Shown here in pieces: positions 20,596-21,249 of a stretch of DNA of 64,000 nt. Origin of the DNA: Eledone cirrhosa. Taxonomy: Eukaryota. The notes beneath the pieces were generated by a model. The model was not told the origin of the DNA, did no database searches, and saw only the letters and a program-made list of their open reading frames with translations. The position numbers and the translations under genes were made by a program. The DNA lies in the NCBI GenBank assembly GCA_964016885.1, contig OZ024743.1:4650001-4714000 (forward strand), given 5' to 3'. The number at the start of each line of letters is the position of its first letter. Within the stretch, counting starts at the first letter, position 1.

Positions 20596-21249
20596 GAAAG
20601 ATCAGGTGTGTGTATGCCGCATTCTCCTCTTTGTACACACAAAAACAAACGAAAGAATTCCCTAATAAGCTAAAAACGGAAGAACTTCATAACATCTGAG
20701 TATATATCTATGATTATATATATATATATATATACAGGGTGTCCCCAAAAATGTATCCACACTTTGATTACCTGTACAGGCAATATCTATTAGTGTGTAT
20801 ACATTTTTTGGGTATTCCCTCTCTCTCTTTTTCTCCCCCCCCCCCCTCTCTCTCTCTCTATATATATATATATATATTAAAATCTTTGGATTTTAGTCTT
20901 CAAATTTATTATTATTACTATATATATATATATATATATATATATATATATATATATAGAGAGAGAGAGAGAGAGAGAGAGAGAGAGAGAGAGAGAGAGA
21001 GAGAGAGGGGGGGGGGGGGGGAAGAGAGAGAGGGAATACCCAAAAAATGTATACACACTAATAGATATTGCCTGTACAGGTAATCAAAGTGTGGATACAT
21101 TTTTGGGGACACCCTGTATATATATATATAATCATAGATATATACTCAGATGTTATGAAGTTCTTCCGTTTTTAGCTTATTAGGGAATTCTTTCGTTTGT
21201 TTTTGTGTGTACAAAGAGGAGAATGCGGCATACACACACCTGATCTTTC
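20596..21249. repeat. Inverted duplication of about 280 bp of local DNA around a 36-nt mobile-element tail
   Basis: 20596-20860 is the reverse complement of about 20958-21249, apart from microsatellite and homopolymer lengths. The centre 20883-20918 is the exact reverse complement of 63405-63440. Confidence 0.9.

Follow-up and report, generated by a model that had tools for sequence, protein, structure and literature searches.

A 280-base mirror copy of chromosomal DNA around a 41-base scrap of a Penelope-like element at a (TA)n repeat

The 64,000-nucleotide stretch of Eledone cirrhosa DNA analysed in this work (hereafter the window) contains a real mirror copy of about 280 bases of ordinary chromosome DNA, arranged around a 41-base scrap of a Penelope-like element (Table 1). 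The reverse-transcribed insert sits where the two inverted copies of its target DNA meet, at their centre of symmetry. It is an evenly poised proposition that the duplication arose by snap-back synthesis from a (TA)n end while the element was undergoing a nearly failed insertion.

Table 1. Features of the locus, an ordinary copy of the same family, and inverted duplications lacking an insert.
Feature	Position	Strand	Basis or remark
Target-repeat remnant on the left, (TA)7 + TT; last T not templated by the arm	20580..20595	+	Sequence; junction in X4/X5 contigs and 2 X7 reads
Left arm, matching 20959-21249 in inverted orientation and made up of unique DNA, a small TIR element, and (CT)n/Cn	20596..20858	-	Arm comparison
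Passenger in the left arm: ~86-nt element, high-copy, its terminal inverted repeats imperfect	20735..20820	.	Right copy 21031-21116
(TA)9-T, inner end of the left arm, second-primer position	20859..20877	+	Sequence
5-nt stub of inverted pseudo-LTR piece, element position ~-90	20878..20882	-	Shares one T (20883) with the tail
3'-terminal 36 nt (tail) of a putative Hydra-clade Penelope-like element	20883..20918	+	Sequence match
(TA)20, first-primer position	20919..20958	+	Sequence
Right arm, continuous with unique DNA past 21249	20959..21249	+	Genome search and reads
Ordinary member of the same family: inverted piece and 5'-truncated, tail-bearing direct piece, flanked by (TA)n on both sides	63405..63626	-	Sequence
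Insert-free (TA)n-centred inverted duplications	L064:709 and 1282-1346, L159:606-738, L274:923-993, L286:1346-1385, L294:883-937, L348:1128-1150, L387:2637-2718

In an arm-to-arm comparison, the arms pair as inverted copies of about 280 bp each, position 20596 with position 21249. The left arm (20596-20876) and the right arm (20919-21249) are the same sequence except for microsatellite lengths and share identical runs of 133 nt and 95 nt. Their differences are confined to simple repeats, namely the length of the (TA)n, (CT)6 versus (CT)24, C12 versus C15, and a 4-nt T/C difference. The ~86-nt passenger element starts with CAGGG after TA and is present at high copy number in reads. As the original prediction had stated, the right arm continues beyond 21249 into unique DNA, while the left arm starts abruptly after a (TA)n; this outer junction, after (TA)7-TT, is blunt and lacks microhomology. 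We infer that the left arm is the derived copy and the right arm the original. The arms had been described as host DNA and not as part of an element consensus repeated at many loci, and this held true: a search with the unique part of the arm (21125-21420), which passes over very common words, gave two hits in the 3.0-Gb assembly, both of them the arms themselves. The idea that the arms are the termini of a foldback or MITE element is contradicted by the same result, as their unique part gave no hit at other loci. The centre (20883-20918) and the reverse complement of 63405-63440 are identical, in agreement with the predicted match to the tail of an element there. A 27-nt pattern from this centre has two matches within the window and none in 100 shuffles, and a 28-nt pattern has 13,562 exact matches.

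The locus is very improbable as an artefact, whether a long-read fold-back chimera, a danger named in the original prediction, or an assembly error. An X4 short-read contig crosses the left junction (20150-20625) with 0 differences at depth 7, and the X4 arm contig, at depth 11.4, has about double the depth of this contig and of the contig leading from the arm into the right flank (depth 6). The same three contig pieces were found in X5, which is from the sample of X4. Three reads of X7, from another sample and another study, were placed at the locus, and two of the three cover both sides of 20596 according to the depth table. Since short-read contigs and reads of a second individual cross the left junction, the structure is not a chimera, and the arms moreover differ in their microsatellite lengths. 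What speaks for an artefact is that X4 and X5 may derive from the sample used for the assembly and that the read check covers the sequence outside the repeat at 20703-21036, the centre being taken from the assembly. No empty allele was seen; the matches of runs X1 and X2 all fell in repeats.

The source element appears, at the level of motifs, to match the Hydra clade of Penelope-like elements. In the part of Craig et al. 2021 (PMC8557442) that bears on it, this clade is defined by a change of DKG to DKT, an RWK motif, a CxCX5C linker, and CxxC and CxH near the C-terminus, and by lack of the CCHH motif and the IFD, and its members carry a single ORF with a reverse transcriptase (RT) as well as a GIY-YIG endonuclease at the C-terminal end. 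The corresponding frame in L032 (645 aa) has DKT at 119, YRDD at 350, the linker CNCRNRVDC (CxCX5C) at 568, and a GIY-YIG-like IIY..YTG at 587; the C-terminal part, recognised by its motifs, lies in a second frame, which contains CDLC (CxxC) and CKH (CxH). Like the elements of that description, the family shows (TA)n targets, partial pseudo-LTR tandems, an inverted 5'-truncated copy, and a tail at one end only. In L031 and L032, the tail sits just upstream of the long ORF and again at the 3' end, which is a pseudo-LTR arrangement. The family differs in having a unit of ~3.25 kb and a tail of ~87-90 nt, compared with a typical size of less than 3 kb and 30-40 bp in PMC8557442, and in carrying RWR at 41, a conservative variant of RWK. 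A further difference concerns a hammerhead-like motif at element positions -165 to -116 (for example in L009), whose core is CAGAAGA...GAAA, and not CUGANGA, in all 84 matches; its minimum-energy fold contains part of the expected stems only. An Rfam search gave no hammerhead hit for the element, and Pfam and PDB sequence searches with its protein gave no relevant hit.

A typical copy of this family consists of (TA)n, an inverted piece starting near -87 to -91, a direct piece that is truncated at the 5' end and holds the tail, and again (TA)n. Among 80 records, which are the first-listed matches on contig C1 and not a random sample (the other copies surveyed come mostly from searches enriched for short copies), the inverted piece from the internal start is present in 34. 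In 12 of these 34, the direct piece is shorter than 85 nt and too short to serve as its template, which suggests that the left end primed the inverted piece as a second cDNA. In the portion of PMC11167929 concerned, a purified Penelope-like element (PLE) protein likewise cleaves both strands, extends both, and begins synthesis at two sites on its RNA in vitro. The window conforms to this pattern, as it reads (TA)9-T-TAAAA before the tail, and the extra TAAAA (20878-20882) matches the start of the inverted piece. The whole insert of ~41 nt, composed of a 5-nt inverted stub and the 36-nt tail, is, to judge by its sequence, a minimal two-primer insertion and not a tail alone, and the claim that only the tail had been copied is not upheld. 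Because the insert carries the stub of a second, inverted cDNA, the (TA)n of the left arm sits at the usual second-primer site. The join of stub to tail is itself unique, with three other places at one mismatch.

An alternative in which only the tail was copied is improbable. It would require the cDNA end to snap back on its own (TA)n without a second primer, TAAAA coming from a tiny hairpin inside the tail. The tail does hold a short inverted repeat able to template 5 nt, but an untemplated base and two successive fold-backs would be needed, whereas the family's second start accounts for every base and requires no addition. This reading is further weakened by a longer stub at the same join in L098 and L165 and by the 6,369 exact matches of this start with a longer stretch of the element behind it.

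In the proposed mechanism, which couples the duplication to the insertion, the element endonuclease would cut the (TA)n, after which the right end would prime a 36-nt cDNA starting at the RNA's 3' end and the left end one of 5 nt that begins at the internal site near -90. The first cDNA would then anneal to the stub by one base and copy the stub and some (TA)n. As (TA)n is self-complementary, the growing strand could switch to its own primer-side (TA)n across a loop of ~41 nt and copy ~280 nt of the right flank after resection, perhaps with slippage in the (GA)n tract. Self-annealing of (TA)n had already been put forward as the copying step, and it still seems the likely one. The new end would finally be joined bluntly to the trimmed left end. 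In a variant with the same product, the cut end would fold back first, the (TA)n loop of the hairpin would be cut again, and the insertion would take place there in the same episode. The DNA-templated copying may be carried out by the element RT or by a host repair polymerase.

Several observations are in favour of this coupled mechanism. The two-primer anatomy on which it builds is usual in the family and agrees with the in vitro activities of the protein, while the insert of the window is unusually short, inserts of 60 nt or less being found in 1 of the 80 first-listed copies. The extra T at 20595 matches the first base of the second cDNA, although this is a weak argument based on one base. 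Precedents are the junctions of L1 fold-backs that contain cDNA (PMC11702581) and the snap-back of R2 cDNA onto nearby target DNA (PMC11371274), as far as the relevant parts of these sources describe them. On the other hand, the mechanism includes one more template switch than an origin in two steps.

The survey of 281 other insertion clusters of the family provided evidence of both kinds. Fold-backs do occur at insertions of the family, as the original prediction had proposed. L054 (~75 bp) and L134 (33 bp) carry the left flank a second time in inverted orientation, joined directly to the 5' end of the element without (TA)n between them, and head-to-head palindromes of an identically truncated tail of 35 nt or 27 nt surround (AT)n in L129 (1496-1632) and L368 (2431-2550); the two direct joins and the two palindromes argue for coupling. 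In L234, a fold-back lies just outside the tail, and the element is in the outer (TA)n. Fold-backs of any type accompany 6 of 124 copies with a direct piece of 50 nt or less and 1 of 157 longer ones (Fisher p=0.046), a contrast that was drawn post hoc and was not significant in earlier versions. Before L335 was added by a more permissive test, p was 0.41, then 0.41-0.69 (with L129 mis-binned), and then 0.09. In addition, L129 and L368, two of the six fold-backs at short copies, were listed twice by the searches and so were favoured by the sampling.

Mirror flanks of the type seen in the window also occur at other copies, in a number that matches the background. They surround 2 of the 281 insertions, compared with 1.6-1.8 expected by chance if insertions and duplications were independent; among short copies, the count is 2 of 124 versus 0.69 expected (P=0.15). 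In L208, mirror arms of ~35 bp with microsatellites enclose two short pieces, and in L335, arms matching at 36 of 37 bp enclose a 29-nt tail together with an element of another family. As both loci hold two inserts, at least one insert in each arrived separately, which weighs against coupling.

Other candidates from the survey were rejected. The 184-bp inverted match at the 5' junction of L012 is a short repeat inside the element ORF that was copied with a 1.7-kb inverted arm. The mirror arms around a 70-nt piece in L125 are 93% alike, which is no more than unrelated copies of this short repeat resemble each other. Low complexity led to the removal of L161, L290, L297, L344, and L153, and L381 was dropped for a match that falls short of the junction; L025, L063, and L097 failed the mirror test. 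Most of the 27 hits in the search that gave L335 and L132 are, by eye, apparently inverted pseudo-LTRs or facing ends of other families. Separately, L302 (reverse strand 1549-6205) has a 1.7-kb inverted arm that is 99.2% identical, and a short repeat inserted in the element ORF is present in both arms, suggesting that a disrupted element served as the template. Tail-to-tail pairs of the Penelope-like family around one (TA)n were seen in L062, L070, L134, L148, L291, and L226 and seem commoner than independent hits would give.

The same architecture also exists without the element. Of 1,258 TA clusters not adjoining the Penelope-like family, nine passed the mirror test, and after removal of L054, which joins the element, and of L297, which is of low complexity, inverted duplications centred on seven remained, compared with 6 of 7,948 random flank pairs. 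One further TA-centred case, in L064 at position 709, stands outside that count. The arms of these duplications measure ~24-220 bp and are mostly 96-100% identical. L294, which consists of the original, (AT)27, the inverted copy, and an (AT)n remnant, follows the plan of the window without an insert, and the same holds for L274 and L064. The view that the element is needed for such a structure is contradicted by these loci and by the background rate of mirror flanks around its insertions. The outer junction of L348 appears to join a short tail of another family.

Such insert-free loci, which count against coupling, support an origin in two steps, an explanation that is quite plausible, if short of an even chance. 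A break in the (TA)n, due to its own fragility or to an earlier unproductive cut, would have been repaired by snap-back, giving an intermediate that reads remnant (TA)n, inverted copy, (TA)n, and original; a very short two-primer insertion into the central (TA)n would have followed later. Because the observed number of mirror flanks agrees with independent expectation and insert-free fold-backs occur, later insertion into an existing fold-back is sufficient to account for the locus. Elements of a different family lie inside the mirror pair in L335 and L132, the element of L234 has the position already described, and the stub of the window is placed as in a normal insertion, between two intact (TA)n ends. 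Within the parts of the two sources that deal with these processes, TA repeats are break-prone (PMC13645644) and snap-back repair makes inverted repeats (PMC5728401). Against two steps, the very short insert, rare as it is among the first-listed copies, must be ascribed to chance; fold-backs lean towards short copies; and the direct joins in L054 and L134 are not readily explained. Between coupling and two steps, we lean slightly to coupling, a judgement in which the scales are nearly level.

In the literature, the closest comparisons concern Hydra-clade Penelope-like elements, other retroelements, and a repair pathway, and they apply to the portions of the sources cited. The inversions described for Penelope-like elements in PMC8557442 consist of element sequence, whereas here the host flank is inverted; the resolution of Penelope-like insertions is named there as open (Craig et al. 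2021). L1-mediated fold-back junctions (PMC11702581, a preprint) resemble the window in having a reverse-transcribed insert at the junction. They are somatic events in L1-expressing cells, often with large copy-number changes, in contrast to the duplication reported here, which spans ~280 bp, was re-joined locally with the left flank kept, is present in two samples, and may have been primed by self-complementary (TA)n. At R2 snap-back 5' junctions (PMC11371274), the 3' end of the cDNA primes synthesis on the cDNA or, less often, on nearby target DNA, as proposed for the window, but R2, a LINE that inserts at a specific site, has one RT start and was examined in engineered human cells. In snap-back SD-MMEJ (PMC5728401), a 3' end anneals to an inverted repeat of its own strand, copies, unwinds, and joins the other end, and a longer inverted repeat results, a course similar to that suggested here. 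That synthesis is described as non-processive and as ending in microhomology, whereas ~280 nt were copied here and the outer junction lacks microhomology. Long direct target duplications are described for Dualen LINEs in the pertinent part of PMC9977147. Our literature search, which covered mainly the text of openly available papers, found no report of an inverted duplication of host flank at Penelope-like insertions.

These results bear on how Penelope-like insertions are resolved, as the stub, the direct fold-back joins, and the head-to-head tails are products that can be looked for in vitro. About 0.6% of the sampled (TA)6+ clusters are mirrored, and there are 79 clusters per 64 kb, from which roughly 20,000 such duplications may be extrapolated for the whole genome, on a rate that may not hold genome-wide because the sampled clusters all lie near insertions. 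Frequent (TA)n-centred inverted duplications could be a source of hairpin RNAs and of unstable sites. A tentative and rather doubtful suggestion is that Penelope-like elements with (TA)n targets are mutators of the whole genome, insertions that failed or hardly succeeded leaving host DNA duplicated in short inverted form at TA repeats, mostly with no element sequence remaining; the window would then be one such event caught with cDNA at its centre. If the duplications are indeed scars of element endonucleases, these elements reshape host DNA beyond their own copy number.

Other repeats were noted in the window. An AT-rich element at 33129-40706 has inverted arms of ~2.3 kb around ORF-like sequence that, by eye, resembles the Hydra clade, with (TA)n outside. 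Like this one, the inverted repeats at 54412-57729, 31940-32629, and 16650-17058 have (TA)n outside their arms and look like ordinary inverted pseudo-LTRs. These last three, together with those at 17377-17479 and 41739-41848, have (TA)n at or near an outer end and seem to be inverted pseudo-LTRs that belong to other families. Families of this kind are numerous in the genome. An 18-bp tandem array of ~93 units lies at about 50000-52000.
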